DNA of 63,540 nucleotides, filler included, from Jimgerdemannia flammicorona (lineage: Eukaryota), in the NCBI GenBank assembly GCA_003990765.1. It is 2 parts of 2 records of this genome, joined end to end, with 100 filler letters (N's around TTAATTAATTAA, not from the genome) between each part and the next. Parts side by side here need not be neighbours in the genome. Positions count along the whole stretch, not along the records: positions 1 to 31,738 come from RBNJ01000382.1; 1 more part is not named here. One strand, given 5' to 3'. A program made the translations under genes and the position numbers. Each line of letters begins with the position of its first letter. Within the stretch, counting starts at the first letter, position 1. Below the pieces are notes generated by a model that saw only the letters and a list, made by a program, of their open reading frames with translations, did not search any database and had not been told where the DNA came from. Positions 1-49,809 of the stretch are shown here, piece by piece.

Positions 1-15
1 TTTTTTAAGAGGCTT

Positions 16-599: not shown

Positions 600-1060
600 G
601 GTAATATGAAGACTGGTTGGGAGAGTGTCTTCTGATTTGTGTTAAAAACATACTCTCTCATTTCTGAGAAGGACCTCTTGTAGCCTATCTTCAATATTTT
701 ATCCAAAAGACTATTTAGAGAGATGTCTCTCAATTTGTACTGATGATGTACTCTCTCTCCAGAGGAGAACCTTTTGCAGCCAGTCTTCAGCATCCTGAGG
801 AGGTCAATTAGAGAAGTATCCCTCAATTTGTATTGGCTACATACTCTCACTTTGGCAGAAAACCTCTTCCAGCTAGCCTCCAGTATTTATCCTTGAGGAG
901 AACTTCTGGCAGTTGGGCTTACCTATCTCACCATGGCAGAGATATTGCAAGAATGACCAGAGGCTAGTTAGGAGGGTGACTTCTGATCTGCACCAATGAT
1001 ATCCTCTCTCTTCAAAGGAGTATCTCTTATAGCTAGTCTCCAGCATCCTCCTACATCCTA
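600..1060. repeat. Degenerate tandem repeat, about 115-120 bp unit, 3-4 copies
   Basis: Recurring blocks 'ctcaatttgta...tactctc...aacct(c/t)tt(g/c)cagc..gtct(t/c)cagcatcct' near 620-700, 725-795, 820-885 and 980-1050. Confidence 0.55.
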
Positions 1061-1099
1061 TTGCATCCCTCAGCATCTCTCAGTATCCCTTGTCAGTTG

Positions 1100-2560
1100 T
1101 GTTTTTTTTCCATTCTGACAATTCCCCTCTTTGCACCCACTACTGTTAGGTTCCTTTAGTATATTATTGTGAAATAGAAGCTAATTTTATCTCTGCTGAT
1201 TTTGACCCAAGTGAATTACTGACTGCTTTGAGGCAGGAGTTGGAGGCTACTTTGGCAATTCTCTCAACCCTTCCATCTAGTGGAGTTGATCCCAGGTTGG
1301 ATTTTAGAAAACCTCTAGAATGTAATATTTTGGAAAAGTTTTTGGACTCACTAACTTATATGATCAATATAGAGTGAGGAATTGATGTACTTCAGGAGGT
1401 ATTTAAAAGTCCCTACTATGAGAAATTGTCTGAGCTATGGTATTTTTGTTTTCCTGAGAGCCCTCCTCTGATGGGTCAGAAAATATATGAGAGGAGGGGG
1501 TATAGGGGTATGTCCATCCAACCTGGATTATTTATAAGATTATTTTGCTTTTTATTTTCATTTTTAGAAAGTGAAGAAGGATTGATATAAAGTGTAATTG
1601 ACAGATTTTTTGGATCAACAATGACAATACTGGATAGATCAGCAAAATCTTAAGACCAAATTTATCCAGACTCAGTTCTATATCCCAAGTCTATAGAATT
1701 TTAAAATACTGAGAATTCTGAGGCTTGATCTTCTAGAAGATCAGACAATAATACTTTATATGCAAAATTTGGAAGAAGTAAGATGACAATATTCTGTCAA
1801 GTCTTTAGAAAAAGGGTACTAAAATTATTTTCAAACTGTGACATTTTTGAAGTCCTCTATTTTGCTAGCTGGTATTCTAAATTTGCACTATAATTATATT
1901 CTCTTGAATGCTGATATAGAGGAAGTTCTTGTCATTTGAAAGAGAATATTAGAAGATCAAGTAAGCCAGGTTTTAATAGATATTTGTAAGAAGACATTCA
2001 AAGTTTAGAAAGCTAGATTGAATAGTAAAGCTTGAGCTGAAACTAGATCTTATATATCAGCTGACTATACTTTGACCTATGCTGGAGAGATATATTACTA
2101 TATCATACCTCTTATGAATTTTAAACCAAAAATTGGATAAGATAAATAGGAGGAATATGAAATACATAGCTGTTATAGAGATGTCTTTACTTCTTTTCAA
2201 TACTTCTTGCTGGATATAGTAACAAATTTCTCTACTTCATCCAATTTTTGACCAATTCAATATTCCCTATTATTTATCTCCTGAGGAAATTTTGGGAGTA
2301 TTCCAACATTCTTGGTATCTCTGGTATTCTTGGTATCCTCAGCATTCTCAGCATCCTAGTATCCTCAGTATCCTTAGCATTTCTAGTATCCTCAGCATCC
2401 CCAGCATCTCTAGTATTCCTGATATTTCCAACTTTAGCATTTTTGACATTCTTGGTATCTCTGACTTCAGTGTCAGAGTTTTCAACTTTGGTACTAGTAT
2501 CATTATTAGCTTTGAAATTATCTGGAATAGATAGAGATTAGGTGAATCTGGGTCAATCTA
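1100..2560 (-). mobile_element. Highly decayed transposon-derived coding remnant (possibly gag-like)
   Basis: CpG-poor. The minus strand shows coding-like 9-bp repeats (D-A/T-E/G/K/R) at about 2300-2480 and stop-riddled frames. No diagnostic motif recognised. Confidence 0.3.
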
Positions 2561-3129
2561 GAATACATTTTAGACTTGGAGGATTTCAGTTTGAGCAAAA
2601 TATAGCAAAAGTCAGCAATATATTTTTTGGCTAATGTATAAGCTCTCCTACTCATACTGATCAAGATGTGACATCATTTTACTCTGTATCATTAAATATA
2701 AAGAACAATATATCTCAAAATCTGAGAGCTTGTTCTATAATTTAGCTTATAGTAATTTAGCTTACAGTATTAAAGTTCTACTAGAGTCTAATATAATAAT
2801 AGTGTTTCACTCAAATTAACTATATAATTCAATAGTTATTAGAGATAAGGAAGTTTTGAACAGTTTATCTCTGAGTATTTGTTATAGAATCTTGGACTTA
2901 GGAGAGCAAAAAAATTCATAGATATTTTGTATATTTGGTAGTTTATTTTTATATTATGTTTTAGTTTTTGAATATTTAGTAGAAGTTTGATAGATATAGT
3001 GTCCTTTTTTCAGGTTTTTTTTTCTGCCAAAGAATTATCCTTTTTGGTGGACTTATTAATTTGCACTAGCTAACTTCTAATTTAGTTTGGTTTGTCATCT
3101 GAAGAATTTACTGAGATTCTAGCTCCTGA

Positions 3130-3330
3130 GGTAAATTTGAGCTAGTTTGATTGAGTTCAAACTGATCTGAACTTATCATATACTGAATTCAAATTTGAAT
3201 TGATTTGAATTCATCCCATGATGAATTCAGATTGATTCAAATTTATCATATAATGAATATGAACTGGCTTAAATCAGACATATGGTTGGCAAATTCAAAT
3301 AAGGTTCAAATTTCCCTAACTTGATCAGAG
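3130..3330. mobile_element. Old hAT-like terminus with decayed subterminal (TTCAAA/TTTGAA/GAATT) array
   Basis: The array resembles the subterminal arrays of the hAT at 8873/13582 after CpG loss. It ends in gagcacaa, one mismatch from that element's terminal gagcacta. Confidence 0.4.
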
Positions 3331-3499
3331 CACAACCCAGAATACAGGTCTCACATTCAAACATATCCTTAAGAATACATTAGAAGTTAGGTGAAAGTTT
3401 CTCAAGAAAGCCAATAAAGATACTAAGAGAATTCCTATCTAAAGACCACATATTCTGAAGCTAAGTACTATCTATGCAGTCCATAAATACTAGTACCAA

Positions 3500-4480
3500 G
3501 AACATCAATCCATAAGGCTGGCTAATAGAACAGTATATGGTGAAAATACCAGAATCCTTATTGATACTAGAGCAGTAGTTTGCATCATCACTTAGTAAAT
3601 ATTAGAAAGAATTAGATAGGGAATTGATGAAGGAACCAAGACAAGAGTTATTATGACAGATGGATCAGTATCTATCTTTCTTGGACTAGTCAGAGATATA
3701 CCTATTATAACAGTGATCTCAGAATAATAACATTATCACAGAAGATAGCCTTTCCTTACAAGCTACCAGATTAGAGTACAAGAAGATCATATAGCATGAC
3801 TCACTTAGGCTATAAGATGAGTAATGATGACCAACTATAAGTCATTATGACCACAAGACAGATATCTTGAGAAATATAAAAAAAGGATCAAGAAACTATA
3901 ATAGCAGCAATCCAAACAAGACTCACAGAAATAGTTCAAAAGACTTACCACAAACAAATGTCTGCCACTCACCAAACCTCAAGGTTCAGGAACTACTAAG
4001 GCCCCTTAGTCTAGGAAAAGATGTTCCAAGATATCAGAAGAGCTATGAGGACTCACACAAGAAGGACTCCTAGCCTCAACCTGAGTACTGGCAACTCTTA
4101 TCATTATATTCTCTACTACTATAAAATGGAAACAAGGATCACCATTACTACTGAATGCCTTTAGATATAGCAGAAATACAAAATAGGAAACCTCTTCTAC
4201 CAGGAATTTTCTCAAGCCAGTCTCCAAGAAATATAAGATACCATTTCCATAGATATATATGAAATAAGAATAGCCAAGAAGATTCATCAGGTCTTCAGAT
4301 ATATATCATGGTCAATCCCTAACTTAGAGTATACTAGAATCTCAGACTTCAAAGAACTATCAGCCCACCATACCAATGTACTGAAGGTCATAGTGGCCAC
4401 AGAAGCCTAGTCTACCATCACTCTCAATAATAATGAAGTAGAAGAGTTCTGGTATCCTATCCTCCAGGACAATTTAGATC
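3500..4480 (+). mobile_element. Ty3/Gypsy pol remnant (aspartic protease region)
   Basis: About 3550-3590 reads RILIDTRAVVCII, a retropepsin D-T-G-A motif with GGA->AGA. Many stops and frameshifts. Confidence 0.55.
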
Positions 4481-4913
4481 AATTTATACAAGGATTGATC
4501 TCAGCATTCTAAGGCCCTAGTATTCAAATTAGACTTCTCCAAGACTCCATATTTATTCCTTATTTTGTAAAAGAGAATATTATAGATTGAAGAGCCCCCA
4601 CTATCACTGAACATGATGACATCACCAGCAATGACATCATCCTGTACAACATATGCAAAACACATAAAATGGATGAAATGTTCATAGATCTCATTTCCTT
4701 TGAGGACATCCTGACCTCTGGTAGTGATAAAGATAAAGTTTCCATAATCCTGAACATTCTGCTCTAAGTTCTTGATAATACTAAAATCTTCTAGCATTCT
4801 TTTTCTATATAACTGAATTCTATCAGTATTTTTTTTCTGTAACATTTAAATCTTCAGGCATCCTTTTCCTATACTACTGAAATCTACTAGTATTCTGAAC
4901 TTATGCAACCATT

Positions 4914-7900
4914 TGTACAGATACTTGAATTTGTACTTACAACTATAGTTTTCTGTATTTCAGTATTTTATTTAGTTATTGGAATTTATATTTAGCTTTA
5001 TAACTTAGCAACTATTGAATTATATTTTATATAAATACCCCTCTTATTTTCTTTAAAATAAAGTCAGTTTCAGTTCACTTATACTCAATTCCACACAAGC
5101 AATCTAAAAGATAACAAGATAGTTTAAAGATAAGACAGTTGAGAACTATAAGACCTTGGGAAGACACTTCAATAAGAACTTGCTTATAACAAACTTGTAG
5201 TTAGTCTAAGAGATATACCTTGAAGAGAATCTGATATATTTGAAGAACTCAGTAACTACTATATAACAACTTAGTATTCATTAGCTAGTGATTCAAGATG
5301 AATTCCTCACTTTCAAGCTGAAAAACAAACAATCACTACAATAACTACCCTGACTACAAGAGTCACTTCTACAAGAATTCAAGATAAGATAGAAATGTAT
5401 CCCCCTACATTCTATAGATATACTACTGAAGAGGTAATTCTGAGCTTTATTGAAGACTTTGAATAATTTTCTGCTATACAAGTTCTCACTATAGATGTAC
5501 AATTAGCCCTTCTATCTGTCAGCCTCAGAGGATCTGCCAGAGAAAAGTTCAATATAGCCACCATTGCAGCCAAACTTGCTAACATGAAAAACTTTCTCGG
5601 AACTATATACTATACTGAAAAGATCAAGTAAGCTCTCAAGGATCAACTCAATACTATCTACCAGAGACTCAGTAAAGATCCTAACTTATTCTATACCCAA
5701 ATCTGCCACCAGATTGTCTTGGCTGACTATAATGATACTCTCAAAGAACAAATAGCTGATTCAATCTTCCTTAAAGGAGTTCACCCTAAAATTGTCCTAG
5801 CAATCTGGTCTACCCCAGCTGCTCTGACCCTTGACCAGAAAGTGATCTTTGTATAGAAATATTAGACTGCCAGACACTCTGCCAAACACTCAATAGAGAA
5901 AATAACTAGCATTAAGATAAAGCTATCAAAGTCAACTAATATTATATCTACCACAGTTGTAAACAGACAACCATTCTCACCTACTTTCAAAGTAGCCAAG
6001 ACTGATCTAGTGGAGGAACTTGTCAAGCAGTTTGTTGAGATGATTGCACACCTTGGTGATATTGTTAGAGAAGTCTGAAGTGCCAACAGGAGACCAGTAC
6101 AGAGATTTATAGTTATTACAGAAGAATGTAATATCACATACTTCAGATGTAGAGAAGAAGGCCACTATGTAAAGAGTTGTATGATTAAAATAAGATGTAA
6201 AGCCCAACTAAGCAATACTATCAGAACTAGAGAACAAATCAATACAGTGGTCATTGAGGATATTAGTGATACTAATGATGAAGAATACTATGAGAAGTCC
6301 AAATTTTACTTTATTACTAAAGGTACCAGAACCCAGTCTAAGCTCTATGACAAGAAGAGTAATAGTAAGCCAGTTGGAAGACCAAAGAAGACCCCAGCTA
6401 TTACTATCCAAAGCAAGACCCAACCTGAGAAGATTGATCAAGACATAGAGTTAGATGAAGCTGCCTATCAAATCATTGAAGACACTACTCCAGTCTCAGG
6501 AGAAAGTAAAAGCAAGAAAGAATAGAAGCTGTACAAGACCAAGATCCACCAGTATGATATCTATATATAAGGACCTCAAGGAATAGAAGGTCAATGCTAC
6601 TTTTGGACAACTAGCTGAGGTCTCTGCCTTCAGACAGTAGTTGAGAGTAGAACTTGCAACTACTGCTAAGAATTAAGAATACAAGATTGTAGAAGCTCAC
6701 AATATACAAGAAGAATCCAAAGACTTAGATAAAGAATCTGAAGATCAGCACAAGACATCATGCTATACTTCATGTCAGATTGAAGATTGTATTTTTGATG
6801 CTATCATTGATACTAGTGCTGGAGAATACCTTATAAGTAAGAAGGCAATTGACTGCCTAGGCTGAGACATTAAAGAGTTCACCAAGATAGTCTATATCAT
6901 AGCAGATAGTATATGAGCTACTCTCCTAGATAAGATCTGAGAAGTACTTATCAAGATAGGAGAAGCTACCATCCTAGTAGATATAATTGTTACAAGTATC
7001 ACTAACTATGACATCCTTATTAGCAACCAATGACTTCATAAGACCAAGGCTATAATTGACCTTAATGCTCAGAAAATACAGATCAACTATAGAGGAAGAA
7101 AGGTATAAGTCTCTATCAATATCCACAAAGGAGTACTACTAGATATAGAGAAAGGAGATAAAGAAGACACAGAAGTCTTTATGTACTCAGTGTATAAGAA
7201 TAAGAGTAAGACACCTAAGCTCACAGATGAGCAGTGGTACAATAAGATCATTGATGGCTATGCCCCTCAAGGAAGATGCCTCCATGGTACTAGAATGTAC
7301 TGCTCTGAACATCTGAATGACAGCTGATCCTATATCAGTGAAGTCAGGAAAATCTGTCAACAGAAGCATGAGTAAGAAGCTGCTGAAGTAAAAAGGAAAG
7401 CTGAAGAAGATGACCAGCCCCCAGAGCTTCAAGCTGACAGTAATGATGAGGAGAAACAAGAACCAGACATCACTCTCAAGATCAAGAAGTTTCACCTTGA
7501 AGCCAAGATCCCAGAATATAAGACTGAAAGAACTATAGAAATGGACCTTGCCAGTATTCAAGATGCTACCCTTGAACCACAGACCACTACTTGGCACCAG
7601 AATTGGAGTCAAGTTGTCAGAGAACTATGCCAGAATTATCAAGACCAGGAGCAGTCTGGTCAAAAGCGAAATCTCAGTTGAAGGAGGAATAATTGACCCT
7701 AATTATACTGGTGAGATCTTCTTCATAATCAGGAATCACAACTCCACCACCCCATTTGAAGTCAAGAAGCATGACAGGATTGGCCAGATGCTGATTCATG
7801 AAATCAAGAAGCTCAAGATCACTGAAGCTACCAAACTCATCAAGACCAAGAGAGAAGAACAAGGCTTTGGATCTACTGGAAGAGGAGCCTATACTGTCAC

Positions 7901-8872
7901 CAAGATAACCAAACTTGAGCACAAGAAAGACAAAGACCAGAACAAGCACACATATACCATTGGAGAAAACTTTCCTCTAGAGGAATAACTTCTCAAGATC
8001 CTACATCAGAATGAAGGAGTACTTGCTACAGACTTTAGGGATATCCACAATCAAGAACTCAAGTACTATTATGAAGTTGATACTGGTGATACCAAGCCCA
8101 TCTACCAGAAAGCCAGACCTATACCACCTGCCTACAGAGAATGGCTGTGAGCAGAACTCAAGGAAATGGAAGAAGCTGGAATAATCAAGCAAGTTATTAG
8201 TCTCTGGGCTTCACCCATTATCCTCACTCCCAAAAAAGAAAACAAGCCTGGAGAGTTTGCCTCAAGACTCTGTATTGACTACAAGAAGCTCAATATAATT
8301 ATCAAAAAGGATAGGCAGCCCTTGCCAAATATTCAAGAAATCCTTACCACTCTTAAAAGTGAAGCCAAATACTACACCACCTTGGATCTGTTCTCAGGCT
8401 TCCATCAGATTGGTCTCACTCAAGATGTGAGTGAGAAATCAGCCTTCATTACACCTAATGCTACCTATATCTACCTACAAATACCATTTGGAATGTACAA
8501 TGCCCTAGTAAGTTTTCAGTAAATAATGAATAGAGTCTTCAATAATGAGATTGGAAAATGACTCTTTGTCTATATTGATGATATGATCATCTTCAGCAAT
8601 ACTGCATATGAATATGTCAACCATATACAGCTAGCTCTCAAGAAGCTCAAGGAGCATGGCCTCTACATCAAGCCCAAGAAGTGTAAGTTTGCAGCTCAGG
8701 AAATTACCTACCTAAGATATCTCATCAACCAGACTGGAATCCACACAGACTCCATAAAGATTGAGGCTGTTGCAGCCTATCTAAGACTCAGAACAACTAC
8801 AGAAGTCTATGTCTTCCTTGGACTATTCTTCTACTACAGAAGATTTATCAAAGAATACTCTAATATTATAGT
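4914..8872 (+). mobile_element. Degenerate Ty3/Gypsy LTR retrotransposon: LTR-gag-protease-dUTPase-RT, truncated at 8872 by a hAT element
   Basis: Putative LTR about 4914-5268 with TATAAATACCCC and AATAAA. Gag knuckle (Y<C)FRCREEGHYVKSC at about 6139-6180. Protease AIIDTSAG at about 6800. dUTPase at about 7480-7880. RT motifs LCIDYKKLN, TLDLFSGFHQI, YIDDMIIFS, KCKF and FLGLFFYYRRFI. Confidence 0.92.
7480..7885 (+). pseudogene. Retroelement-encoded trimeric dUTPase domain (one frameshift near 7590)
   Basis: Motif I (E<G)MDL lies in the upstream frame. Motifs II TRSSL, III GIIDPNYTGEI, IV DRIGQM and V REEQGFGSTG lie in ORF 7548..7988. Confidence 0.93.
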
Positions 8873-9305
8873 TAGTGCTCCCAAATGAATGGAATCAATT
8901 CGAATCGAATTGAATTGGAGTTGATTGGAGTCGAATCAAATTGAGGATTTTTTGATTCAAATCAAAGTCAAATTGAATCAAAGTCGAATCGAATTGGGGG
9001 TCTGATTCGATTCAATCGAATCGAATTGAGAGTTCGATTCAAATCTTACGTCATCAATCTTGTGTCATCAATCTTTTTATTTGTAATCAATTTTCACAAT
9101 TCAGCATTCCCAGCACCCACTGCACAATTCATTTTCACACTATTCATTCAAGCATCCTAATTCCTATCCTAATTCATTCACAATTCAGTATTTCTGACCG
9201 ATCCCAGCACATCCCCCCACCACTTGCCACAATCTCTGGTGTCGCTACATCTGTGTTCTTCCTGTACATCACCACCGATGGCGATCCATTACCCGATGTA
9301 CAAAT

Positions 9306-9923
9306 TCAAGCATTTCCAGTATGCCTGACCACAGTAGCTGCTATCTGATGTGTATTATCATATAGTCTTTTGCCTGGAGGAATATCAGAGATGGTTGGAT
9401 CAAGATGTTGACAAATCCTGAGAATGGTATGGTATATTTTACCATACACTCTGCAATTATAGCAACTTGTAATACATCGTCCTCTTCTTGGCTTCAGGGC
9501 TGGGGCTTGAGAGACTGGGGCTTGAGAGACCAGGGCTTGAGGGGCTGGGGCTTGAGGGGCCGGGGCTTGAGAGCCTGGGGCTTGAGGGGCTGGGGCCAGG
9601 GCTTGAGGGGCTGGGGCCAGGGCTTAAGGACTGGCTGGGACTTGGACTTGAGGGCTGGCAGGGGCTTGGGCTTGAGGGCCAGCAGAGGCTTAGACTTGAG
9701 GGTCGGCAAGAGTATGGCTGGCTAAGATAAATCTCTCAAGCACTTTCTCTATTTTCTTCTTATTTTTCTTATAGTTTTCATCAGTCTTATCATCATTGTC
9801 ATCATTTAGCCATTTGAAAACTTTGCTGATGGTCTTGTTCATTTCCTTGAAGTGCTCGGACAAGTCTTCAAGATAAACTTATAGGGATAAATAGTGAAGG
9901 TAATTTTGAAATTTGTCAGTCAT
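9306..9923 (-). pseudogene. Passenger ORF inside the hAT element: helical N-terminus, APQAP repeats, basic Cys motif resembling half a Zn(II)2Cys6 cluster
   Basis: One frame runs from ATG at 9923 to TGA at 9306 with three in-frame TAA. Two of them fall at Q (CAA) positions of the PQAP repeat. Contains KPRRGRCITSCYNCRVYGKIYHTILRICQH. Confidence 0.6.
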
Positions 9924-9999
9924 TTTTTTTTAGCTCAAAATGCAGACAGAAGTACAGCTTAGACAGCCTATTTATATGTTTTTTATCTGATACTTAGAT

Positions 10000-10440
10000 T
10001 CAAATATAGCATAATGCCGAGAGCTTCGAATATAGTAGTGTGATGCTGAGAGCTTCGAAGCATGATGCCAAGAGCTTCAAATATAGTGGTGTGATGCTGA
10101 GAGCTTTGAATATAGTGGTGATGACACAATGAGCCAATATGGAGAGCTTCGAATATAGCGGTGATACAGTCAAGCCAAGAACTTCAAATATAGCTATAAT
10201 GCTGAGAGCTTTAAATATAGTAGTGACACAGTGAGACAATATGGAGAGCTTCAAGGCAGTGACACCATCAGGAAGCTTTGGCAGACAGGTAACTTTGATG
10301 GAGCCAATATGGTGCAGAGTAGGAGAGTTTCGAAGTAGTGATGCTAGGAAGCTTCAGCGATACTAATAGTGCAAACAGGTAGCTTCAGCGGTAATGCAGT
10401 GAACCAATATGATGCAGAAGCAAGCCAAGAGCTTGGAATA
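10000..10440. repeat. Internal tandem array of the hAT element (GAGCTTCGAATATAG-containing units)
   Basis: Repeated gagcttc(g/a)aatatag...gtgatgc and ccaatatg units lie between the transposase stop and the passenger ORF. Confidence 0.75.
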
Positions 10441-10548
10441 TAGATACTTCATTATTCAGAATTCTGATATAATGATCAGGTATGTATATATATTTGGTAT
10501 TTCGAGAAACTATATTTCGAGATTATACTATATTTCGAGATCGGAATA

Positions 10549-12760
10549 CTAGACTGATTGCCATGCCTTTAAACACATATATTCACGGATCATTTCAGGG
10601 TCTAAAGCACCTCTTTTGGGTGTTACAAGATCTGTACTACTTGAAAAAACCTGCTCAATTGGAGCACTTGTTGCTGGGATAGCTAAATAGTCATGTGCCA
10701 TTTTTGCTAGATTTTGGAAATCTCTGCTATAGCTCTAATGTTCCTAATAAATTAAATTAATTAGAAAAAGACTTTGGAAATATATAGACCAAATTCGAAT
10801 ATGAAGGCCCAACTCACTTACCACCATGATAATGTATCAACTCCTGATTGAAATTTAACAATTTCACTTTTTAAATAAGCATCTACCTCCTGCTCAGAAT
10901 TTGTTATCAGTTTTTGTCTTTTATTACCATAGAATATATATTCATCTAGTTCAGCAAGGATGTCATTATCATCTTCAATTGCAGCATTGACATCGACATT
11001 GACATCAACACTGATGTCGACATTGATATCAATGTTGGAAATTGTACAATAAACTGATCCAGATGGAGGGGCATAGTTTTTGTTATAAACTGTATGAAGT
11101 GTGTTTTCAGCCTCTTGAATCCAAATGTCTTCCCAACTATGGGATGAATAATATCCTAGTTTAATCCTGGGATCGAGAACTGATTTTCATTCCAAAAAAT
11201 AAATTCGTAGTGACCAACTGATTGAATTTCAAAACTGTCTTAGCACCAAGCAAATTTCGAAATAGATTTTTCGAAATATTTACTTATTAGTACCAATATA
11301 ATAAAGACCATCTGTCATTGAATAATATATCTTCAACTTATCAATAGCTGCTGTTATTGCCTAGTAAATAATATCTGTCAGCTCATCCATTGACTCTCCT
11401 GTCTTTGGCATTCGAATATCTTTATCATCCTCTAACTTATTCAGCAGATAGTTGTAAATTGGAATAGCTATATAAATTGTTATATATTTCTGCTTAGCTA
11501 TAAGATCTGTCACCTTTTGAAAGTTTTTTAGAATTTTCATAATATCTTTTAGCATCTGCCAAATATTATCTTCAATGGTATATTTTCACAAATCTTTATC
11601 AGCCACAATTGTTGTGATTAAGGGCTATTAATAAAAATTAATTTATTAATAAATAAATTATTATAATATAAATTATAATATAATATAAAACTTACCTATG
11701 ATAATTCTAAGGCCTGTTCAATCATAAAATATGTCAAATTCCACCAAGTCTTAATATTTAGAATAAGTTTTTTTGGATTGCTGATTCCAAAAGCTTTACA
11801 TTGTACTTTAAATTGATCAAGAATGACTGAATCTTGATAATACTTGTTTGGAGTTTTGAAATTAGTTCTCCATCATCATCAGCCTTCATACAAATTAAAA
11901 AGGCCTGAGCAGCCAGATTAATAATATGAGCCAGGCAGCAAACATATTATATTGGCTGATAAAGGCCAGCATCAAACTCTATTCCAATTGTTTGAAAAAA
12001 TATATTGTTGTTGGATGCATTGTCTGTTATTATAGCCAATATCTAGAGTAAAAGATCAATAATTCGAAATATAAGTTTTCTAAAATTCCAACCTTTTTCG
12101 AAAATTCTGACCTTTTTCGAAAATCCCACCCTTTTTTGAAAAATCCTACTCTTTACTCTTTTTGAAAATCCCAACCATCCCAACTTTTTTTTTTTTTTGA
12201 CCTTTTCAAAATATGATCTACATATCTTTGTCTATATGCCAAAATCTCGAACACATTTTCCAAAGGCATCAGTGATATTTTCACCTAAATGAGATCCTGA
12301 TAGCTTGACAAAATCAATCAGCATATAGTTAAGTTGCCAATTCTGACAGATCTAGTGTGCATTAATTCCAAGAAATGCATGTATATTTGGAGATGTCCAT
12401 GTATCAACAGTGAAGGATATTCGACCTCATATATTCTATTTTCGAATACAATAAGATTAATTCAAATACTTGAATTAATATTCAACGTCAAAATATTAGA
12501 TCTTACCTGTAGTATAATTTTGATGGTATCATGCTTCTGTTGAAAGGCCAGTTTAATTTTATTTCGTATAGTTCTAGCAGAAGGCATAACAATATCTGGT
12601 TTTAAAAGGGAAAAAACATCTTTCAACTCCAAATTCTCAACAACCATAAAAGGCTGACTATTACCAATAATCCAGCAAACAAGCTTTTCTCGAAATAATG
12701 GCATGGAGAATTTTGGCTATTTTTGAATATTATAAAGTAATAATAAATTAATAACAATAA

Positions 12761-12823
<63 letters not shown>

Positions 12824-13166
12824 CAAGTTATATAAAAAACATACTTGTGAAAAAAATAACTCTATTCCTCCTCCTTCTTGATAACTCTTATGATACTTGT
12901 TAAAATATGCCCACAAATTTGTTATTGAACTACCAATAGCTTTATATGATGCTCTACAGTAGTTACATTTGATTTGAACATCTTCATTTTCCATATGCTC
13001 CTTTGTGAACTCCTTCCAAATGTTAGAGCATTCTTTTCCTTTCTCAGACCATTATGAGACCTGTGATGAAATTACACTTATTGTAGCTATACTTGTATCT
13101 GACACTAAAGCTGTTACCATAGTACATATCCTCCATAGATAGTGATGTCAAAAGTGCATCAGACAT
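10549..13166 (-). pseudogene. hAT transposase with BED zinc finger and hATC dimerisation domain, several spliceosomal introns, disrupted
   Basis: BED finger IWKEF...KCNYC...TNLWAYFNKYH; WIIGNSQPFMVVEN; FTVDTWTS; CLAHIINLAAQ; NLAKMAHDYLAIPATSAPIEQVFSS; CLKAW. GTAAG donors near 12506, 11695 and 10821. Confidence 0.93.
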
Positions 13167-13273
13167 GCTTGATTACTTTGAGAGAATGTTGTTGTATATT
13201 AAACTGCATGTGTGAATTACTACTATATTTAGATTTGAATCGAATTTCGGTTCATTGAGAGTACTACCTAAAC

Positions 13274-13412
13274 TTCAAAATGCAATAACTTGACGAAAAC
13301 ATATCCAAATTTGATATTCTTTATTGTATTGGATTCGCCTTAATAAGGCAAATCCAACAAGCTAAAATTTATTAATTTTGGACATGTTTTCATTGAGTTG
13401 TTGAATTTTGAA
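13274..13412. repeat. 139-bp nested imperfect palindrome between the transposase start and the adjacent TIR
   Basis: 43-bp outer arms (13274-13316 and 13370-13412, 35/43 match), 12-bp spacers and 14-bp inner arms (13329-13342 and 13344-13357, 13/14), all centred on 13343. Confidence 0.9.
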
Positions 13413-13582
13413 AAATTAAGGTTTGAATCAAACTTCAAATTGAATTGGACCTTTGATTCGATTCAATTGAATCAAATTGGGACCTTGATTCAAATTGAAT
13501 TGAATCAAATTGACCCTTGAATATTTCGAATCAAATCAAATTGAGGTCAAATTCAACTTGATTCGATTCATTGGGAGCACTA

Positions 13583-13955
13583 TGTGTACAGACTGAATTC
13601 ACCTTAGAATTTAGGTTCAATTGGGTTTACTTAAGTCTTTGGGGATTTATATACTGGTCTCAGTTCTGGCAGAAGTTAGCTAGACTTCTGGAGTTTAGTC
13701 AGAAACACTAGAGTCACTTAGATATCATTACTAAGACTCAGGGGAATGTGTGTGTGTGGGGGAAACTTGATTCTTGTATCAAGGACTGAACTAAAACTGC
13801 TTTATTTCAGATGGAAACTGGGGGGTATTTATACAAGTTGGTCCACAATTTCTGACTAAGTATGAGTGACTAATTTGGTAACTATAATGAGGTTTGTGAT
13901 CAGGACCTCAATTACTAGGCAATGATCAGCAGCTGTAGTAATAGTTGCTATAGCA
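13583..13955 (-). mobile_element. Probable solo LTR, related to the LTR at about 4990-5100
   Basis: TG...CA ends. The minus strand has TAGCAACTATT...TATAAATACCCC...AAATAAAGCAGTTTTAGTTCA, matching tagcaactatt...tataaatacccc...aaataaagtcagtttcagttca at about 5005-5077. Confidence 0.6.
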
Positions 13956-14094
13956 CCGATTGTTGGAGATAAGCTGGATATCATTTTCTGCATCGTTTTG
14001 CATCATTTGCATCATTTGTCATTCATATGTTGATGTCATCACTGAGTCATGTGATCACTTGTCATGCCTCATTCTATTACAGCTATATCTATAT

Positions 14095-14610
14095 TTAGTA
14101 TAGTCCAGATAGCCTCTTATTAGTATAAATACCCCTCTCTCAGACCTTAGAAACTCAGACTTGAACAGATCTAAATATATAAGAACTCCTGAACACTTTT
14201 CTACAATATCTCTTCACACAACTACTTATAGTATAGCAATATCATAAATAGTAAATAAATCTATTTAATAACTTATAAACTACTCTTAAGTAAATTTATA
14301 CTTCATTAGGTCCTGTTCTTAACTATATTACAAAATTTTCGAATTGAGTATTGTCTGTAGTAATATGCTGATTCAACTAAGCTAGTCTTAGTTTCTTGAA
14401 CTTTCTAAAATAGAACATCTAGAATAAGTTTGAAAAAGGACTTTAGTTGAGACATCAATCCAATCTTGAAATCAATAAATATAGAGGATATATTCTATAC
14501 AAAATTAATCTTGATTTTAAAAAAAATAGTCTTCCAGAATATCCAGAACTTCTAGAAAACCCTTCTAGAACTATATAATAGTACTTTAACAAAGTAACTC
14601 TCTTATATAT
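14095..14610 (+). repeat. Dispersed LTR-like repeat, copy A (copy B inverted at about 57978-58490)
   Basis: Colinear similarity over about 500 bp, for example ctcttattagtataaat and aatagtcttc(c/t)agaatatccagaactt. Confidence 0.8.
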
Positions 14611-14687
14611 ATTTAACTAGAACTGAGAGCTAATATAGTAATATGATTAAGATCTATAGACTTGAGTAGTAGAATATATATTGAGAG

Positions 14688-15107
14688 TCTTCTCTTATCT
14701 TACATATAAGTTCTCTACTCATCTCATTAGAGAGAACCAGGTTCTACCTATTATTCTGTATTTTTTAAAGAGTTTTTCTTTATCTATTACTCTATTTGAA
14801 ATAGTGAAAGCTATTCTAACATAGCCTTATATATGTTGGAGTTTTGGGTATACATCTTCAGTTATAAGTATATGATTGCTTTCTCTCTAATAATAGAGAG
14901 AGTATAGTATACAAAATGAGATACAGACTAACATAAGCTCTGCTGTATCTGACATGATCAAGCTGCTGAACAATAACTAGTCTAAGTTTGATAAGAGTAT
15001 AGTTCTTGGTGTGGGAGTGGGGGGGGAGGGGTTTGGCCTATATAGTCTAGGTTCCCTTCCAATAAAATCTGTGGAACTTGGGTCCATTAAAAAAAAAAAA
15101 AAAAAAA
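14688..15107 (+). mobile_element. Short poly(A)-tailed retroposed element, copy A (SINE-like or 5'-truncated LINE)
   Basis: AATAAA at about 15061 and an A19 tail at 15089-15107. Colinear with 57395-57825. Confidence 0.8.
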
Positions 15108-16297
15108 GGTAGTAAGATTAATTATAAAGAATATAATAATAATTAGTTCAAGAACCAAGGTGAGTAATAGTCCCTACCTGGTGAGAATCTCTAGAAGGTA
15201 ATATAGCATGTTTGACGTGTGTACTATTCGAAGCCTGCAAACTTAACCCTCCCTAGCTCAAGGGCTTTTTCCCGTGTCATCAACATGTTCGCCCTCAATC
15301 GCTTCCTTCTCGTCTTCACTTTCCGTAGGTGCCGACAATAATGCTCTTCTCCCAGGCAGCAAGGCCATTGACGGGATTTCCGACTTCCGAGAGATGGTCA
15401 GTGACAATCTCACTTGTAGACAAGTCGATTTTCAGCCCTGAGTTCGTTGACAGTGAGAATAGCATGACACTCGTTCTGCATTTGGCAAGTCGATGTTTCG
15501 GCTCTTCCGCGAGCACATCGCAGACGAGAGCGTGAGCGAGAGCCAATCCCGCCGGGATATGTTCGACCAGATGATGATCAAGAACAGGCCGGCAAGTACC
15601 CATTGATTTTCCTGACGCTCAAGAAGGTTTGTGATCTGAGTGGCCATTTCTTATGTGGAAGACTAAGTGTTGATTGTCCTTGCCCCCCTGAAGGATATAA
15701 CGATATGGAAGCCACATCTTCGTCACCCCTTGTGACAACAGATCCAACAATAACCTGGTGGGTTTGTTTCTTACCATCCTGTGCTAAGACTCCAACTTTT
15801 GGAGTGGCCACGGTTGCCGGTCTTGTTTGCTTTTAAGCCAACTGATGAGCCCCTTAAGCAAGGGCGAAAGACGCTTTATAGTTTGCTGCTGACGGCTTCT
15901 TTTGCGAGACACCTAATAATCTTTTACACGTCTGATGAGGTGTAGAGACCGTTGAAGGTTGCAACCTTCTGGCTAGGGTTGTGTACGACCCACGGTACCG
16001 ATCCGCCAATCCTTCGCGCACCTTTTTTTTTTTTTTTCTCCTTTTGTTTATCTTCTTTTAATTCACAGAAATCTATATTTTGCATTACACTCATTGGAAT
16101 GGCAATACAAAGTATATGTGAACCTTCACCTCGTCCCAGATTCTCCCCCATACTTGCCCTGCTTGCTGTGAGTTTAGCATCTCAGACTAGGATTTTATTT
16201 CGTGGTTCGTTTTATAATTACCATCTTTGTATGTCGCTTCCCGGGAAAAGGAAAATAGTTCAAGTTCAAACCTACTTTTGAAAACATATTTATTTTT

Positions 16298-17686
16298 CTA
16301 CAGATCAAAGAACTCGGCCAAACAGCTCTTTGAGCTTCTCTCAAAATTCTCCTCCAATCTACATATGCAGTCCGCCCTCGCTTTCCCTGTCTCCAGATCG
16401 CTCGGACAATACGCCAGGCCCGCCTCCCGCACTCCAATCTCATACCACCATTTCACTGCGCTTCTCGGTAGCAATAGGGTGGACCCAATCGACCGTACGT
16501 GTTCGGGACCCCAACCCGCATAAAAAAATCCGCCGGCCTCATCTATAGCGATGAAGAATTCTTGATAAGCAGGACTCTTGTAAAATCGCAGATCAAGTAC
16601 CTCGATGGCACCGGGGAGGAAATGGCAGAGGTTCCATCCTCCATGCTTGGATCCCTGTGTGATAAAGTTGACGAGGCTTTGGTTCTGGGGAATGCGGTAC
16701 TGGGGATGGGTGTCGATGAATTGAAGCGACGTATCCCATAAGCTTGGGTGAGTGGGCTCTTCTTCGCCAAGACGCTCGCGAAACGGGATTACGAACGAGT
16801 AAGACATATTGTGCCGGTGCATATAAAGGAAGGGGTCGAGGGTGATATCGCATGGATAGGAGGAAGTGGAGGAGACAAGCCAGGCATATGAATATGGCGC
16901 AAGAATAGGGTGGCTGTGAAGGAATAACAGACGATGTGATAGAAGATCAGATTCTCGTCAAACCAAACAAACTGCCAATTTCCAAAGCGATCGAATCACA
17001 TTGAACGAACGAAGAGCAATAAACTTACTCGAACACTGGTCCTGACAAGTATCTTGCCAAAAACCTACTAGACAGCTCGACATTTGCCAAATCGCCACCG
17101 CGGAACGTAAAACTGTCTGGGGCGTATGCTCTTGTCAAATTGATTCCTTGCGGGAAAAGCCACGCAGTATGCGGGATCTGCGCAAACGTGATATCAGCCG
17201 TGGTCATGGCGCCAACGTATTCCTCGAACTCTGGCATTAATTCAACGCTGCTAAGGATCACCCAAGGATAATAATGGCGATTGTTGAATCTAGAGGCCCG
17301 GAAGAGGATTTTAGTGGCATATGTTGAATGCTCCTTCGTTAAATTCTGGCGTAAATGGGGAGAAGGAAGGGGACGCACCTGTCTTCGATTTCTCTGATGG
17401 CTCTTCTGGCATTGACCCAATTAGCGTCGTTGACGAAATAAACGAAACAACCCTTTATACCTTCTTTGAGAGAGTTTTCGAAAGCAGAAGGAACTCGTTC
17501 TGGCCGTGTGGTTGGTTCATTGTCGGTTGGCACGAGCAAAAGCTCGGGTGACCGCGCCGGCACTTCATTCTTGAGCACGAACTCGCTCAGTTCGTGGGAT
17601 GTCAGATAGATATACCACGATACCAAAGTTAACGTAGCGAGTACAAATACTATGCGTCTAAAATTTTTCTTTGTTTCGAAATGCAT
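16298..17686 (-). CDS. Divergent glycosyltransferase family 15 (KRE2/KTR/Mnt1-like) type II membrane protein, 3 exons
   Basis: N-terminal TM IVFVLATLTLVSWYIYL. GT15-like segments IREIEDRFNNRHYYPWV, CDITLDPFLYM, WNLCHF and AYQEFFIAIDEAGGFFY. Introns 17290-17378 and 16914-17028. Confidence 0.85.
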
Positions 17687-17878: not shown

Positions 17879-17917
<39 letters not shown>

Positions 17918-18215
17918 AAAAAACAAAAAACAAAAATAAACCACATGGCCAAACAGACGGAAAGGCAGCATAACAATCAAATTTAAGCCGAGTTTACTAC
18001 TAGTACTGCAGTTGCCAACATAGCTATCTAGAACAACAGTTTGTAAAGGATATGAATATATATATATATTCAAATCACAAGATGGCAGCATTCCATTAAA
18101 ATTTGGGCGCAAAGCCTGCTGAGAATACCAAAAAGCAAGATTCAACATGCCATTACAATCTCAATCGCACTTTCGAGGAAGACCTAGTAGCACCTTTCCC
18201 CTCTTACTACGTGAA

Positions 18216-19124
18216 CTATCTTCCCAACCTCCACACCCAAGCCCCCATTCCGGCCATCCCAGCCATGACACTCGCAGCCATTAATGCTGGAAACAAAAAT
18301 GTCACGCACCCCAGGAACACGATCCCGCCTTCCAGTGCCATCACGCCGACCGCGGCTCCGCACGTCAACACGGCGAACGTACTCACGATGAACCCGATGA
18401 AAACGAAGACAGGAGCCGCTGCCAGGGCCAAGCTGAAGTAGATAATAACTTTGAGGGCCGGATAGGCGTCCATATAGCTCTGAACCAGGTTCAGTGTCCA
18501 GACAAGGTAGATTTGAATCGTGTGGATTCGGAGGGCGACGGGATGCGGGGTTTCATTGAGACGAAAGCCTGTATTTTTGGTGTGGATCGAATAAGAATTC
18601 CGAGAAGATTCACGATTGCGAGATGTGTATGGTTCGGGGCGATCCTCAGCGCAGACCGTGGATGAACGTGAAGGGCTAGGGTTGTGATATGTGGGAATCT
18701 TGTGGGAATCCTCAATACGGGATGACGCTGGGAGCGGAGATTCGGGATTGGGAGACGCGGTATGGGACGAAAGCGGATGCAACGGGCCAGGAATGTGGGA
18801 GGTGGGTGGTGAATCCATGGCGTTGGAAGAGGATTCAGTGTTGTGCAATGTGGGTTTTTCGGGCTCACGTTTGTCGGAGACTGTTGTCGGGGCTGGCCCT
18901 TGCTTCACCTCCTTATGATCTGTCAGGGTTCTTGTTTGCAGGACTTCAGGGGGCGGGAGGTTGGGGATCTTTGAATCGGTTTGGTTCCACCCTATGTGTG
19001 GAGATGGTTGAGCGGAATGGAGCATGGTATTGGGTTTGGCGGTTCGCGGTGATGAGGGTTTCTGAGAGTATGGGTGGGGGTCGAGGTGGTTCTGAAGACA
19101 GGCTGCACACTTGCGGGAAGTCAT
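18216..19124 (-). CDS. Promethin/LDAF1 (TMEM159)-like lipid-droplet membrane protein with disordered N-terminus
   Basis: 302-aa ORF. The C-terminal hydrophobic region YPALKVIIYFSLALAAAPVFVFIGF...VMALEGGIVFLG matches the promethin pattern (P...P..FF...EG). Confidence 0.65.
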   Translation of the reverse strand: MTSRKCAACLQNHLDPHPYSQKPSSPRTAKPNTMLHSAQPSPHIGWNQTDSKIPNLPPPEVLQTRTLTDHKEVKQGPAPTTVSDKREPEKPTLHNTESSSNAMDSPPTSHIPGPLHPLSSHTASPNPESPLPASSRIEDSHKIPTYHNPSPSRSSTVCAEDRPEPYTSRNRESSRNSYSIHTKNTGFRLNETPHPVALRIHTIQIYLVWTLNLVQSYMDAYPALKVIIYFSLALAAAPVFVFIGFIVSTFAVLTCGAAVGVMALEGGIVFLGCVTFLFPALMAASVMAGMAGMGAWVWRLGR

Positions 19125-19450
19125 GCACGGCTCCAGCTGTAGGCGTGAGCCATTTAAAAAAAAAAAAAAAAAAAGGCGAGTGATGACGAACAGGTCTCGT
19201 CATCCTGCTGCCTGTTTCTACCTCTGCTCCTTTTGATTCTCTCCTTTTTGGGCTTTTGGGCCCCAATTGGCTTTTATGCCCAATCGGGCAAATTGGGCAT
19301 CAAATGTTGGGACATAATTAGCACCTAGGTGGTCATCCGATCACATTACGCCGCTGCCCCCAATCGTGGGAAACCTGATCGACTACTGCCATAACAATCA
19401 TTTTTTCCTCTTCAAACCTTTCCCGCACACCCACACAACCCGCAACGCCA

Positions 19451-20052: not shown

Positions 20053-21318
20053 TTACATAAAAAATCCTTCTTCCCCCAACCTATCTTCCTTCTCGACCAC
20101 AAACCCACCGACACCCGAATACCAAGCCTTTCCCGCCACCTCCACCACTACCCCATCCATCTCGCCGATCTTCACAGTTTCCACGGGTGTACCCTCAAAA
20201 TACCCTCCACCCGCCTTCTGGGCTATTCGACTGAGCATGCTGCCAAAAACCTTCGTCTCGCCCAACGTGGCGCGTCCCCGCGCATACAGCACCGCCACGC
20301 GGGCCGATACGCCTGACCCGCAAGGCGATCGGTCGACCTGAGCGCCGGCAAAGATACAAGCGCTGAGTGAAGGTGCGGAGGGCGCGCCGTCGCCGTCGTC
20401 AGTGACAATCGTGCCGTAGAGGAAGTCGAGGTCGCCACGAGTGGCTGAACCTGGGTAACGGAACAAAGGGGCGAATCGCGGGTCGCCGGCGACGGTGCTG
20501 GAGAGGAGGGCGGCGCGAGTGCGGAGGAGGGAGAAGAGGTAGGGGGTGTCAGCAAAGTCGGGAAGTCCAAGCTGCGTGGCGGGGACGATACAGTAGTAGG
20601 CGCCGCCAAACGCGATGTCGAAGGTGACGGGCAGGGGACCTTCAGGGAGGTTAACGGAAGTGGTGAGGTCGGTCGCGATACAGAAGGAGGGGACGGAGAG
20701 GAAGCGGACAGGAGAGGAGGGGTCGCTTTTAAAGTTGTTGGAAGTGGGATGGGTGTCGGAACTAGGAATCGGTGAGGTTTTTACAAAAGTACGGACCAAA
20801 CCACACGGGGCTTGGATGTTCAGCGAAATGACCCCGGTGATGGGGTCTGGACGGAGAAGAACGCGTTTCGGAAACAGCACCGTATCCTGGGTGTCGATGA
20901 GGAAGCGGCCGAGGGCGATGGTGGCGTGGCCACACATCGTGGAGTAGCCCTCTGTATGGGTAAAAAGAACACCAATGTGTGCGTCCGGGTGGTCGGGCTC
21001 CGGGATCAGCAACGCGCCGTACATGCCATCGTGTCCGCGGGGCTCAAACATCAAGCTTATCGAACATCGGGATGATGAGGAGTGACAATCTTAAACACGA
21101 ACGAGTTGAATATCAAGAACATCTCCATTGCGCCATCAATCGTACCGTTTTCTGTACTTGTCCAACCGCTCCTTTGCGTAACGGCGTTTGTCGAGCACGG
21201 TGGCTCCAAGCAGTTCCGGATAACCCGAGACGACAATACGAGTGGGCTCTCCACACGTGTGCATGTCGACGGTCTTTACCGTTACAGCGTCAGAGTTGAA
21301 GGCGGTGTAAAGGTCCAT
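20053..21318 (-). CDS. Proline racemase superfamily protein (L3HYPDH-like lineage) with a Cys/Cys catalytic pair, 2 exons
   Basis: DMHTCGEPTR, EPRGHDGMYGA, YSTMCGHA, DIAFGGAYY and DRSPCGSG. Intron 21056-21145. Confidence 0.95.
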
Positions 21319-27738: not shown

Positions 27739-30487
27739 TCACTTGCGTCCCGAAGAAAGATCCCTGAAAGAGGCTATGATACAATTCTTGATTTCCTTGT
27801 AACTCACAATGAGGCACGACTGTTCATCTCGAGACATGAGCATGATTTTCTCGTCCAGGCCTGCGTCCAGCTGCAAAACCGAATCAAATTGTTGGATAGG
27901 GCACAACCAAAAAAGGAATTATTGGGAGATGGGAGAGAACCTTTATTAGACATGAATATCCTAGAAAAGGAAAGTTCGGCCTCAAACCATCATCACTTAC
28001 TTTGTTCATGCAGGTTAATACATGTACCATGTCTACAACGGGCACGCCGTTCTCATCCACCTGGTGGAAGACGTAATCCCGGAATAATTTGATCAGGTAA
28101 CGGTCGCCTGTTTCTGACCAACTGGGATCCATATCAAATCTGCCCATTGCATAAATAAATATAAACAATTTCATTGTGCGCGCACACACATTAGCGGTGA
28201 CGTTGGCTCAAATAATCTCATAAATTCTGGAGTGATCGATGACTTACTCTGGTCGCTCGTTGATGAATCCCATCTTACACAACAGTCGCACAAGACGCCC
28301 GTTCTCAAGTTCTCGACTCAACTCATTCTCAAGAAAGTCATTGTAGCTATGAAAAGGTTAATGTTAATAGTGATCATTAAATAATAGAGTGGGGCGAGCA
28401 AGACCAATGACAGAAAGTTTGCGAGGCTACATTATAAAGTGAAGTAAACTTGCACACCTCTCCCCCCCTCCCCTCTCTTCTTTTCCTCTTTCTACACCAA
28501 CGAATTGATAAATTATGTACATACTGATGAGCGCTGTTGATCTCGTGCAGGATTCTAGGCCCGATCAAGGTAACAACTTCGTCAATGGTTTTGGTAGGCA
28601 TTGGTTTGCTCAGAAGACAGAGCACCACGTTTTTGAGCTCAGCCGAGTAATGCCGCGAGATGTATTCGAACGACTTTGGCAATTGAGTGATCGACGCTAG
28701 CGAATTGCATGCCAGAGCAATCACGAGTTTTCCAAAGGCGAGAAGATCCTCTTGCTGAAAGGAGATACAAATACATAAGATGTGGCATACATGATATGAC
28801 TTATGATCGCAGATTACAACACACACAATTTAATCCAAAATTAACAAAACAGTACAGTAAGCGAAATACCTGAAATCGGGCGACATTCTGACCGCCGTCA
28901 TACTGCAGCATATCAAAGATGCCGCAGCAATTGAGACGTATTCTTGAAAGCCGCCATTGTAAAATTAACAAACAATAAGGAAATATTGGAAAATCTACAT
29001 GACGTTGGGATTGTAGCATCGGCTCACCGATTCTTGCTCGTAAGCAGGATCTTGCTCGGCTCGATAACGCGTGCAGCGAGCCCGGCCGAGTGAATGGTCT
29101 TGAGCGATGAGGTCAGTTGTGTGATAAAGCTCCACAGGGTTTTTTCCGGAATATTCACATTACCGCCGGGAGGCTGCGACGGTGTAAGTCCCGAGGATTG
29201 CGCCTGGATGGAGAAGTACTTGTTGAAAAGTGTCGACGAACATGGGTGATAATCATAGACGAAGACGACGGCTGGGTGCAAAACAAACGAACCAAGACAG
29301 ACGAGAAGCAATTGCGACGCGCGTGGTTAACAGAATGTATCGAATAAGATGAAGAGCTCCTAGCAAGATGAAATAGAACGTACAGTGATCTCCAAACGTT
29401 TTTGTTGTGAACGCTTCCCTGATCGATACAATATTCGCGTGGCGTATCCGTCGCCAACTCTCAATGGTCGACATGGCAACCTCGTTAGTAAGCCGAAATC
29501 CTATGAAACGGAGATTATATTATTATCAAACCTGCCCGTTGGGGTTTCGACTCAGACATGTGTAAAGCCCACCTTCGATTCGGCGCAACGCATACGTTCG
29601 CCCGTCCACAGTACACACAGCTTTGTAAACAGACGTCGGATATCCAAAGACCTTGGGTGACTTTTCTTGGTGTTCGTCAAGCGGATATAATGAGTGATAG
29701 ACATGGAGCTCGCTCGGGAGATTCAGTTCTTGCGCTAGAGTTCAATTATCCAAAGACGGAATCGATTTGATGTTTCAGCATAAGCTAACCATATGTGCTT
29801 TCACGCAAACACGACTGCAAAAAACAAACCATTTGCCGTCCTGAGCACAGCTTCGTTTTTTTCCAGCAGCTCCTCCCGTAAATTGTCCGGCATGAAAAAG
29901 CCATGAATGGTCTTTTGATGCGGATGTAGATTCGACACGTGCGGCAGAGGTGTCGAGTAGAGATGATATTGCAGCTGTGACAGAGAATGCCGAGGACTCA
30001 GCCCAACAATGAAGCGAAACAAGATGCGGTGATGAATTCACAAAGAGATATTACTGGCAGAACATACAGGTTGATGACCGAACACGTGCGAATTTCCGTA
30101 ATAATATTGGTCCATTTGGTTGCCCGCGTACATGTTTGTTACGCTGTACCGTGGCTGCGGGGATTGCGGTGTTGGGGATGACGGAACTCCCGACCCCTGT
30201 TGTTAAACCGCATTTAATCGTTTATAAATGTATCAATGTGATGCTATTATATGTATGATCTCCAATTTAACTTTGCAAATTTATAAGCATCGGAGGGTGA
30301 TGCCGAGGAGTACTTGCATCACTTCCAAAGCCAAACTGGGCAAATGAGTTCGTTAGAGTGGTTACTCCACCAGTAGGTATGTTGCCCTGTGGGACCAAGA
30401 AGGGAGATGCTTGCTGACTTTGGGACGGATAAAAGGCTATATTCGGATCGAACGTGGAAACGCTTGAAAGCGAGGAAAAAAAAAAAG

Positions 30488-30522
<35 letters not shown>

Positions 30523-49043: not shown

Positions 49044-49072
49044 CTGTGCAAAAGGGCACACCCGTGTCTCGC

Positions 49073-49778: not shown

Positions 49779-49809
<31 letters not shown>

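Follow-up and report, generated by a model that had tools for sequence, protein, structure and literature searches.

Copy A of a short retroposon in the genome of Jimgerdemannia flammicorona (assembly GCA_003990765.1) differs from a second copy mainly by transitions and is itself shifted toward A/T, which raises the question of whether a fungus outside Dikarya mutates its repeats in the manner of RIP. To our knowledge, RIP-type defence does not extend beyond Ascomycota, apart from weaker signals tied to CpG in some Basidiomycota, and the usual picture of early-diverging fungi is one of reliance on RNAi and heterochromatin. CpG-type deamination decay of methylated transposons is familiar from Basidiomycota, animals, and plants. 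It is the non-Dikarya host that makes the pattern worth a genome-wide test. Here, we analysed one stretch of 63,540 nucleotides (hereafter, the window), in which a CpG-poor transposon island, a gene zone, and a second block of repeats follow one another.

Host and repeat content of the window

An open reading frame of 1836 codons on the minus strand (33249–38759) encodes UTP20, and the part of it that was searched (residues 88–1180) was 100% identical to a J. flammicorona protein. One relative stood at 80% identity, followed by proteins from Mortierellomycotina, Glomeromycotina, and other Mucoromycota at ≤56%. The host is thus a member of the Endogonales and not a Pezizomycotina ascomycete, in agreement with the Mucoromycota affinity assumed in a first-pass annotation of this DNA. 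Its genome measures ~240 Mb, with >77% repeats, according to two reviews (PMC10386755, PMC7928374).

Copy A (14655–15107, plus strand), recognised by reading the sequence, by nhmmer, and by composition, is a ~450-bp, poly(A)-tailed, SINE-like element at the edge of the CpG-free transposon island. Its body (14655–14999) has a GC content of 29.9% and zero CpG and gives way to a 3′ tail (15000–15088) of 50% GC, with an AATAAA motif at 15061–15066 and a poly(A) stretch of 19 bases at 15089–15107. Copy B (57351–57825, plus strand), for which MAFFT alignment added to the same lines of evidence, belongs to the same family and is less decayed: its body has a GC content of 44.3% and a single CpG, with AATAAA at 57776–57781 and poly(A) at 57805–57825. 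Homology between the two was firm in nhmmer from position 14690 of copy A onward and weaker back to 14655.

Short, tailed by poly(A) behind an AATAAA motif, and devoid of coding capacity, both copies have the makeup of a non-autonomous poly(A) retroposon or SINE. An Rfam search over 57300–58600 (E up to 1) returned no match to a tRNA-, 5S-, or 7SL-derived head, and ARAGORN found no tRNA anywhere in the window; we therefore speak of a SINE-like non-autonomous poly(A) retroposon and leave its family unassigned. Comparison of the flanks of copies A and B by eye revealed no convincing target-site duplications. Neither nhmmer nor a transition-collapsed self-BLAST uncovered a third copy or an LTR pair within the window, both returning only three known repeat pairs and some tandem arrays. 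Among JGI metagenome contigs, a 32-base retroposon pattern had zero matches and a 19-base pattern four loci, which were alike in the pattern alone. Because no third copy was found, the differences between A and B carry no polarity of their own.

The other two pairs emerged from comparing the window with itself (self-BLAST). Repeat X adjoins retroposon copy A in one place (14104–14609, plus strand; GC 26.9%) and recurs in inverted orientation downstream of copy B (57978–58485, minus strand; GC 27.2%); its two copies are separated by 67 transitions and 12 transversions and are 94% identical when written in a purine/pyrimidine alphabet. The third pair is a LINE-like non-LTR retrotransposon. Its first copy (53039–57348, plus strand), a degenerate element of 4.3 kb, holds a reverse transcriptase fragment (55584–56138) and ends in an A-rich tail at ~57318–57348, immediately 3′ of which retroposon copy B begins. 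It has a GC content of 50% and a CpG observed-to-expected ratio (o/e) of 0.15; upstream of it, CpG-poor sequence and metagenome cover reach to about 50.9 kb. The second, inverted copy (59189–63498, minus strand) shows a poly(T) stretch at 59193–59217 on the plus strand and a weak reverse transcriptase fragment (60884–61105) that scores 20.2 bits, below the Pfam cut-off of 29.6. Pfam recognised nothing but such reverse transcriptase fragments in the stop-free pieces of the LINE frames. The two copies are 66% identical (85% in the purine/pyrimidine alphabet) and differ by 14.7% transversions, and they are probably old subfamilies. Together they form an inverted pair spanning 53039–63498, and the 1.8 kb between them contain retroposon copy B and repeat X.

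The sense strand of the LINE (51000–57348, plus strand; 59189–63498, minus strand) is G-rich and C-poor, with a GC skew of ~+0.4, while A and T each account for about 25%; in copy 1, G accounts for 36% and C for 14%. We considered whether C-to-T loss had produced this strand, and rejected the idea since, at 26% A and 24% T, the strand has no surplus of T. The skew appears to characterise the family as a whole.

Copies A and B differ by transitions on both strands

When A (14660–15090) was aligned with B (57360–57805) in MAFFT, 67.9% of the 421 aligned columns were identical, and the differences comprised 114 transitions and 21 transversions. At 81 sites, A/T in copy A stood against G/C in copy B, and at 33 sites the opposite was true. 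In the purine/pyrimidine alphabet, identity rose to 91.8% over 437 columns, arguing that the differences are not alignment noise. The first-pass annotation had described exactly this—two copies separated mainly by transitions, copy A pushed toward A/T, and many of the changes outside CpG—and on all three counts the alignment bears it out; the two strings it quoted from copies A and B were also found in place. Only 18 of the 114 transitions fell in doublets that read TG in one copy and CA in the other, as a decayed CpG would leave them, and the other 96 were distributed as 32 CpA, 32 CpC, and 32 CpT. From the nine TG/CA doublets we estimate that the ancestor of both copies had roughly 18 CpGs, which each lineage lost on its own. 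Within the body of copy A (before 15000), 78 of the 154 G:C sites of copy B, about half, now read A:T.

Such a spectrum might in principle be laid down during retrotransposition, by an APOBEC-like enzyme acting on first-strand cDNA or an ADAR-like enzyme acting on RNA, so that the copy was mutated at birth. The elements are indeed poly(A)-tailed retroposons and their changes transitions, and copy A shares with APOBEC3-type hypermutation a dense set of transitions in a retroelement copy, including G-to-A runs in G tracts. However, both strands were equally affected, unlike in APOBEC3-type hypermutation: G-to-A changes (43 of ~119 G) and C-to-T changes (29 of ~81 C) occurred at the same rate of 0.36 per site and were intermixed, without strand-specific runs (39 runs seen, 34.4 expected). 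Strand symmetry and the runs test together led us to reject strand-specific editing of cDNA or RNA. Moreover, repeat X and a satellite described below share the spectrum without evidence of retroposition, and we regard editing at retrotransposition as very improbable.

Context preference is weak and CpG loss is confined to repeats

To describe sequence context, we computed the fraction of C sites changed by 3′ neighbour, taking each copy as the reference in turn. For the retroposon body, the two references gave 0.69 and 0.50 at CpA, 0.60 and 0/7 at CpC, and 0.33 and 0.23 at CpT; for repeat X, the corresponding values were 0.44 and 0.49, 0.40 and 0.33, and 0.16 and 0.10. The effect of the 3′ neighbour reached p = 0.0004–0.007 in these four site sets. 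Part of the CpA excess consists of CpG doublets; once these were removed, CpA still equalled or exceeded CpC in three of the four sets and exceeded CpT in all four. In the LINE pair, the context effect was almost absent. The dinucleotide preference is weak, in the order CpA ≥ CpC > CpT.

The transposon island (1–15216) has two CpG in its first 8000 bp, with a CpG o/e of 0.01 over 1–8000 and 0.31 over 8001–14100, and the LINE copies lie at 0.08–0.15. The gene zone (15217–50900), our single-copy comparison within the window, has a CpG o/e of 1.05, and its AT-rich spacers (2,950 bp; GC 31.7%) keep a value of 0.97. CpG loss is thus clearly repeat-specific. The statement in the first-pass annotation that all repeats are nearly CpG-free holds once it is graded (o/e 0.01–0.31), and its placement of CpG-rich genes from about 15.2 kb onward was correct.

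The products expected of CpG decay are unevenly spread. The o/e of TpG plus CpA is 0.86 in the body of copy A and 0.70 in repeat X, against 1.07 in single-copy spacers and 1.23–1.29 in the LINE copies; A and X are enriched in TpA and depleted in TpG/CpA. A landscape with CpG depleted in repeats and normal in genes, and with a TpG/CpA excess in the LINE copies, is what decay of 5-methylcytosine (5mC) would leave. Its CG-only form is contradicted by the 96 of 114 transitions outside doublets, and by 27 of 31 polarised changes outside CpG (see below).

Is the transition excess special to repeats?

Three unrelated non-coding repeats in the window are rich in transitions: the retroposon (114:21), repeat X (67:12), and a 23-bp satellite of 14 units without CpG (22–345), in which we counted 42 transitions and 4 transversions against the majority unit, some of them common to alternate units and hence not independent. 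This agreement supports deamination as the underlying process. The satellite is also pyrimidine-rich, and its alternation of A and G at positions 1 and 6 of the unit hints at a higher-order unit of 46 bp.

As a single-copy yardstick, we set the codons of UTP20 against the relative at 80% identity and counted the amino-acid differences that a single base change can produce; these are non-synonymous changes under selection rather than neutral sites, and they make an imperfect control. The yardstick yielded 139 transitions and 88 transversions, or, per possible path, a kappa of 3.9; the gene-based transition share used for comparison was 0.66. Measured against this share, transitions were in excess in the retroposon (114 of 135; p = 1.4e-6), in repeat X (p = 1.6e-4), and in the satellite (p = 7e-5). 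K2P kappa was 16 for the retroposon pair, 13 for the repeat X pair, and 3.3 for the LINE pair. That the transition excess is repeat-specific can accordingly be argued only indirectly, through a kappa of 13–16 set against 3.9 from a baseline under selection; the "repeat-restricted" in the title of the first-pass annotation is likewise not to be read directly off the sequence.

A plainer account would be that the genome as a whole experiences AT-biased, transition-rich mutation, that copy A owes its state simply to age or to descent from an old, AT-rich subfamily, and that CpG loss alone is specific to repeats. Composition gives this account some weight: the most decayed repeats have a GC content of 27–30%, similar to that of the single-copy spacers that keep their CpG (31.7%), so that these data do not show the push toward AT in itself to be peculiar to repeats. 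Likewise, a k-mer screen covering 1,239 fungal genomes found that repeats mirror non-coding DNA in composition in most species (PMC12543289). Against ordinary mutation stand the kappa values of 13–16 and the raw 42:4 count in the satellite, compared with 3.9 in the gene and 3.3 in the LINE pair, as well as the depletion of TpG plus CpA in copy A and repeat X relative to the spacers.

Metagenome contigs give a direction to the changes

Polarity came from one soil metagenome (word share 0.10), whose contigs were matched at 80% likeness to positions 43541–63540. Nearly all of the 6,234 matching contigs lay on repeats, with a summed depth of 44–820 there and of about 0 on genes; by likeness, 414 contigs fell at ≥99%, 1,122 at 95–99%, 2,457 at 90–95%, and 2,241 below 90%. 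The LINE/retroposon family is represented by contigs in the thousands and the neighbouring single-copy genes (43.5–50.8 kb) by nearly none: it is a very high-copy family in a soil organism of low abundance. Depth peaks over retroposon copy B and repeat X (57548–58214).

The comparison held 2,022 variable places (1,520 transitions, 502 transversions), and we polarised the best-supported 40 of these, at which every contig differs from the LINE copies of the window, bearing in mind that a soil metagenome may mix strains or species. Among the best 40 of 2,022, 31 were transitions with A/T in the window and G/C in the family, three were transitions in reverse, and six were transversions; a mere four of the 31 A/T-ward changes stood in CpG context. 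After removal of CpG sites and one CA/TG doublet, two of 29 transitions ran toward G:C (27:2), whereas a share of 0.317 would be expected if the GC content of the spacers is taken as the equilibrium (p = 0.0016). The LINE copies in the window hence carry private G:C-to-A:T changes, mostly outside CpG. This shift, beyond the 31.7% GC equilibrium at the best 40 of 2,022 places, speaks against ordinary AT-biased mutation, which we consider the main rival to our preferred reading and a possible but, on the whole, unlikely sole cause.

The 3′ tail of copy A was spared

Heavy mutation in copy A ends inside the repeat. In its last part, about 90 bp long (15000–15088, plus strand), 3 of 37 G:C sites were changed, compared with 78 of 154 in the body (Fisher p = 7e-7), and the tail is G-rich yet spared. 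This rejects a uniform, in-place decay of copy A.

Two readings offer themselves. The CpG-rich flank begins at 15217, about 110 bp beyond copy A, and the tail lies within about 200 bp of it; adjoining this presumably unmethylated flank, the tail may have stayed outside the silenced domain. The position of the boundary, near CpG-rich sequence, supports a link between mutation and chromatin. Alternatively, the machinery that copies the element may require this 3′ end, which would then be conserved in source copies; on that reading, A and B would have diverged largely in source lineages. A conserved tail fits divergence built up in active source copies, and to that extent favours the ordinary-mutation account over decay in place. 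Spectrum, contexts, strand symmetry, CpG contrast, and direction are what the data show; some of the A–B differences may date from active source lineages rather than from the place where copy A now lies.

Comparison with RIP and related systems

A genuine RIP-like defence would be a homology-triggered, probably sexual-phase deamination of cytosines in duplicated DNA, here with a loose context and outside Dikarya. With RIP as known from Neurospora and other Pezizomycotina, the window shares G:C-to-A:T change on both strands of repeats, heavy in the body of copy A, as well as some CpA preference, with the CpA rate the highest of the three contexts, and an AT-rich, TpA-enriched end product. Differences between repeat copies are, as RIP would require, predominantly transitions of the G:C-to-A:T class, though transversions are not negligible. 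The composite RIP index was positive in three of 27 repeat windows, among them, weakly, the very places of interest (maximum +0.19 at 14001–15000; +0.06 at 58001–59000).

In the other 24 windows, however, the index was negative, and the substrate index (CpA+TpG)/(ApC+GpT) was raised to 1.3–1.9 in most repeats, the opposite of its lowering under RIP. The strong CpA-to-TpA preference of canonical RIP was not seen: CpC changed at almost the rate of CpA. The 3′ tail of copy A was spared, G-to-A and C-to-T changes did not group by strand, the decayed repeats were no richer in AT than single-copy spacers, and the LINE copies, at 50% GC, showed no AT shift. Efficient RIP should leave few long repeats that are nearly identical, and 1,536 of the 6,234 contigs were at least 95% like the copies in the window (from a soil metagenome, which is not the genome itself); a genome of 240 Mb with >77% repeats, as given in PMC10386755, is equally hard to reconcile with it.

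In the literature, RID has been described from Ascomycota alone (PMC13297926), the 1,239-genome k-mer screen reports RIP-like signatures only in that phylum (PMC12543289), and RIP was not detected in chytrids (PMC6572847). A precedent outside Dikarya is Zoophthora radicans (Entomophthorales, Zoopagomycota), for which a RIP-index hint is reported together with the authors' own caveats (PMC11105155). Like ours, that report concerns a non-Dikarya fungus rich in transposons and hints at repeats degenerating by changes of the C-to-T type; it is built on dinucleotide indices alone, whereas our evidence is drawn from alignments of copies and the index in our repeats is negative for the most part. Among the literature matches listed, no paper dealt with RIP-like or non-CpG decay in Endogonales. 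In sum, we think a homology-triggered defence of the RIP type quite improbable. The pattern within the window looks more like transition-biased ageing of silenced repeats than like a new RIP.

Decay of transposons by 5mC deamination offers a better match. Shared features are the complete loss of CpG in repeats next to genes that keep it, the TpG/CpA excess of the LINE, and a change that is gradual and bounded by chromatin. Most changes here fall outside CpG, unlike in CpG-type decay, with methylation as the presumed cause. Decay under Dim-2-type methylation, in turn, extends to all cytosine contexts, as do the changes here. One review ties Dim-2 activity to C-to-T change in the methylated repeats of the ascomycete Zymoseptoria (PMC13297926). 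Phycomyces, a member of the Mucoromycota, is described as having DNMT1 together with a homologue of Dim-2; its methylation is mainly CG and low in non-CG contexts (PMC7862722, PMC13297926), and this sole Mucoromycota methylome quoted differs in that respect from the largely non-CpG changes seen here.

A proposed model of repeat ageing in silenced DNA

We propose that copy A inserted long ago or else comes from an old subfamily of the retroposon. Cumulative deamination of cytosines in silenced, probably methylated, repeats is our preferred cause for its state, and we give it about an even chance of being right. We infer both that methylation is the agent and that the changes arose where copy A now sits. 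Under this model, the retroposon would lie in a silenced, CpG-free transposon island bearing cytosine methylation, where deamination on both strands would have converted about half of the G:C pairs of its body to A:T. CpG would be lost first and completely, CpA and CpC more slowly, and CpT most slowly, and all of this would be superimposed on a genome-wide AT-biased mutation pressure. The process would be a slow decay linked to chromatin rather than a burst triggered by sequence duplication, and the tail would have escaped through its presumably unmethylated flank or through conservation for the copying of the element.

Of the three mechanisms put forward in the first-pass annotation, a homology-directed, RIP-like system fares poorly given the negative indices, weak context, spared tail, and abundant copies, while a heterochromatin-directed process or deamination of non-CG 5mC would appear to fit better. 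A broader claim is that Endogonales direct non-CpG cytosine mutation, favouring CpA and CpC, at repeats or heterochromatin and so degrade silenced transposons, as a functional analogue of RIP or of Dim-2-dependent mutagenesis outside Dikarya, and this in a genome of which repeats nonetheless make up >77%; this we find unlikely. If transition-dominated non-CpG decay in Endogonales were real, cytosine-directed erosion of transposons would also shape Mucoromycota genomes, and the pattern would point to non-CG methylation or a deaminase in that group. If ordinary AT-biased mutation were all there is to it, the window would still provide a usable picture of transposon ageing in a 240-Mb, repeat-filled genome. 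The extreme transition bias distorts Kimura-type dating of these repeats.

Further features of the window

The transposon island also holds a degenerate retroelement on the plus strand, in which a dUTPase (7539–7985) stands just upstream of two reverse transcriptase pieces (8151–8519 and 8562–8885); it sits in the zone of intermediate CpG loss. Long A runs occur at 12762–12821 (60 bases), 17879–17940 (62 bases), and 30476–30519 (44 bases), two of them within the CpG-rich gene zone, and may be the tails of other retroposon insertions. Two N runs of 44 each (31739–31782 and 31795–31838) lie within an AT-rich spacer and represent either gaps in the assembly or withheld letters.

Downstream of copy A, an ATG-led hydrophobic frame at 15285 may be the start of a gene; the nearest open reading frame (15468–15833) matched no Pfam family. 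The first recognised gene past copy A is a Glyco_transf_15 mannosyltransferase (16298–17417, minus strand), and the gene zone continues on the same strand with an open reading frame carrying a promethin domain (18216–19199) and a proline racemase family protein (20053–21090).
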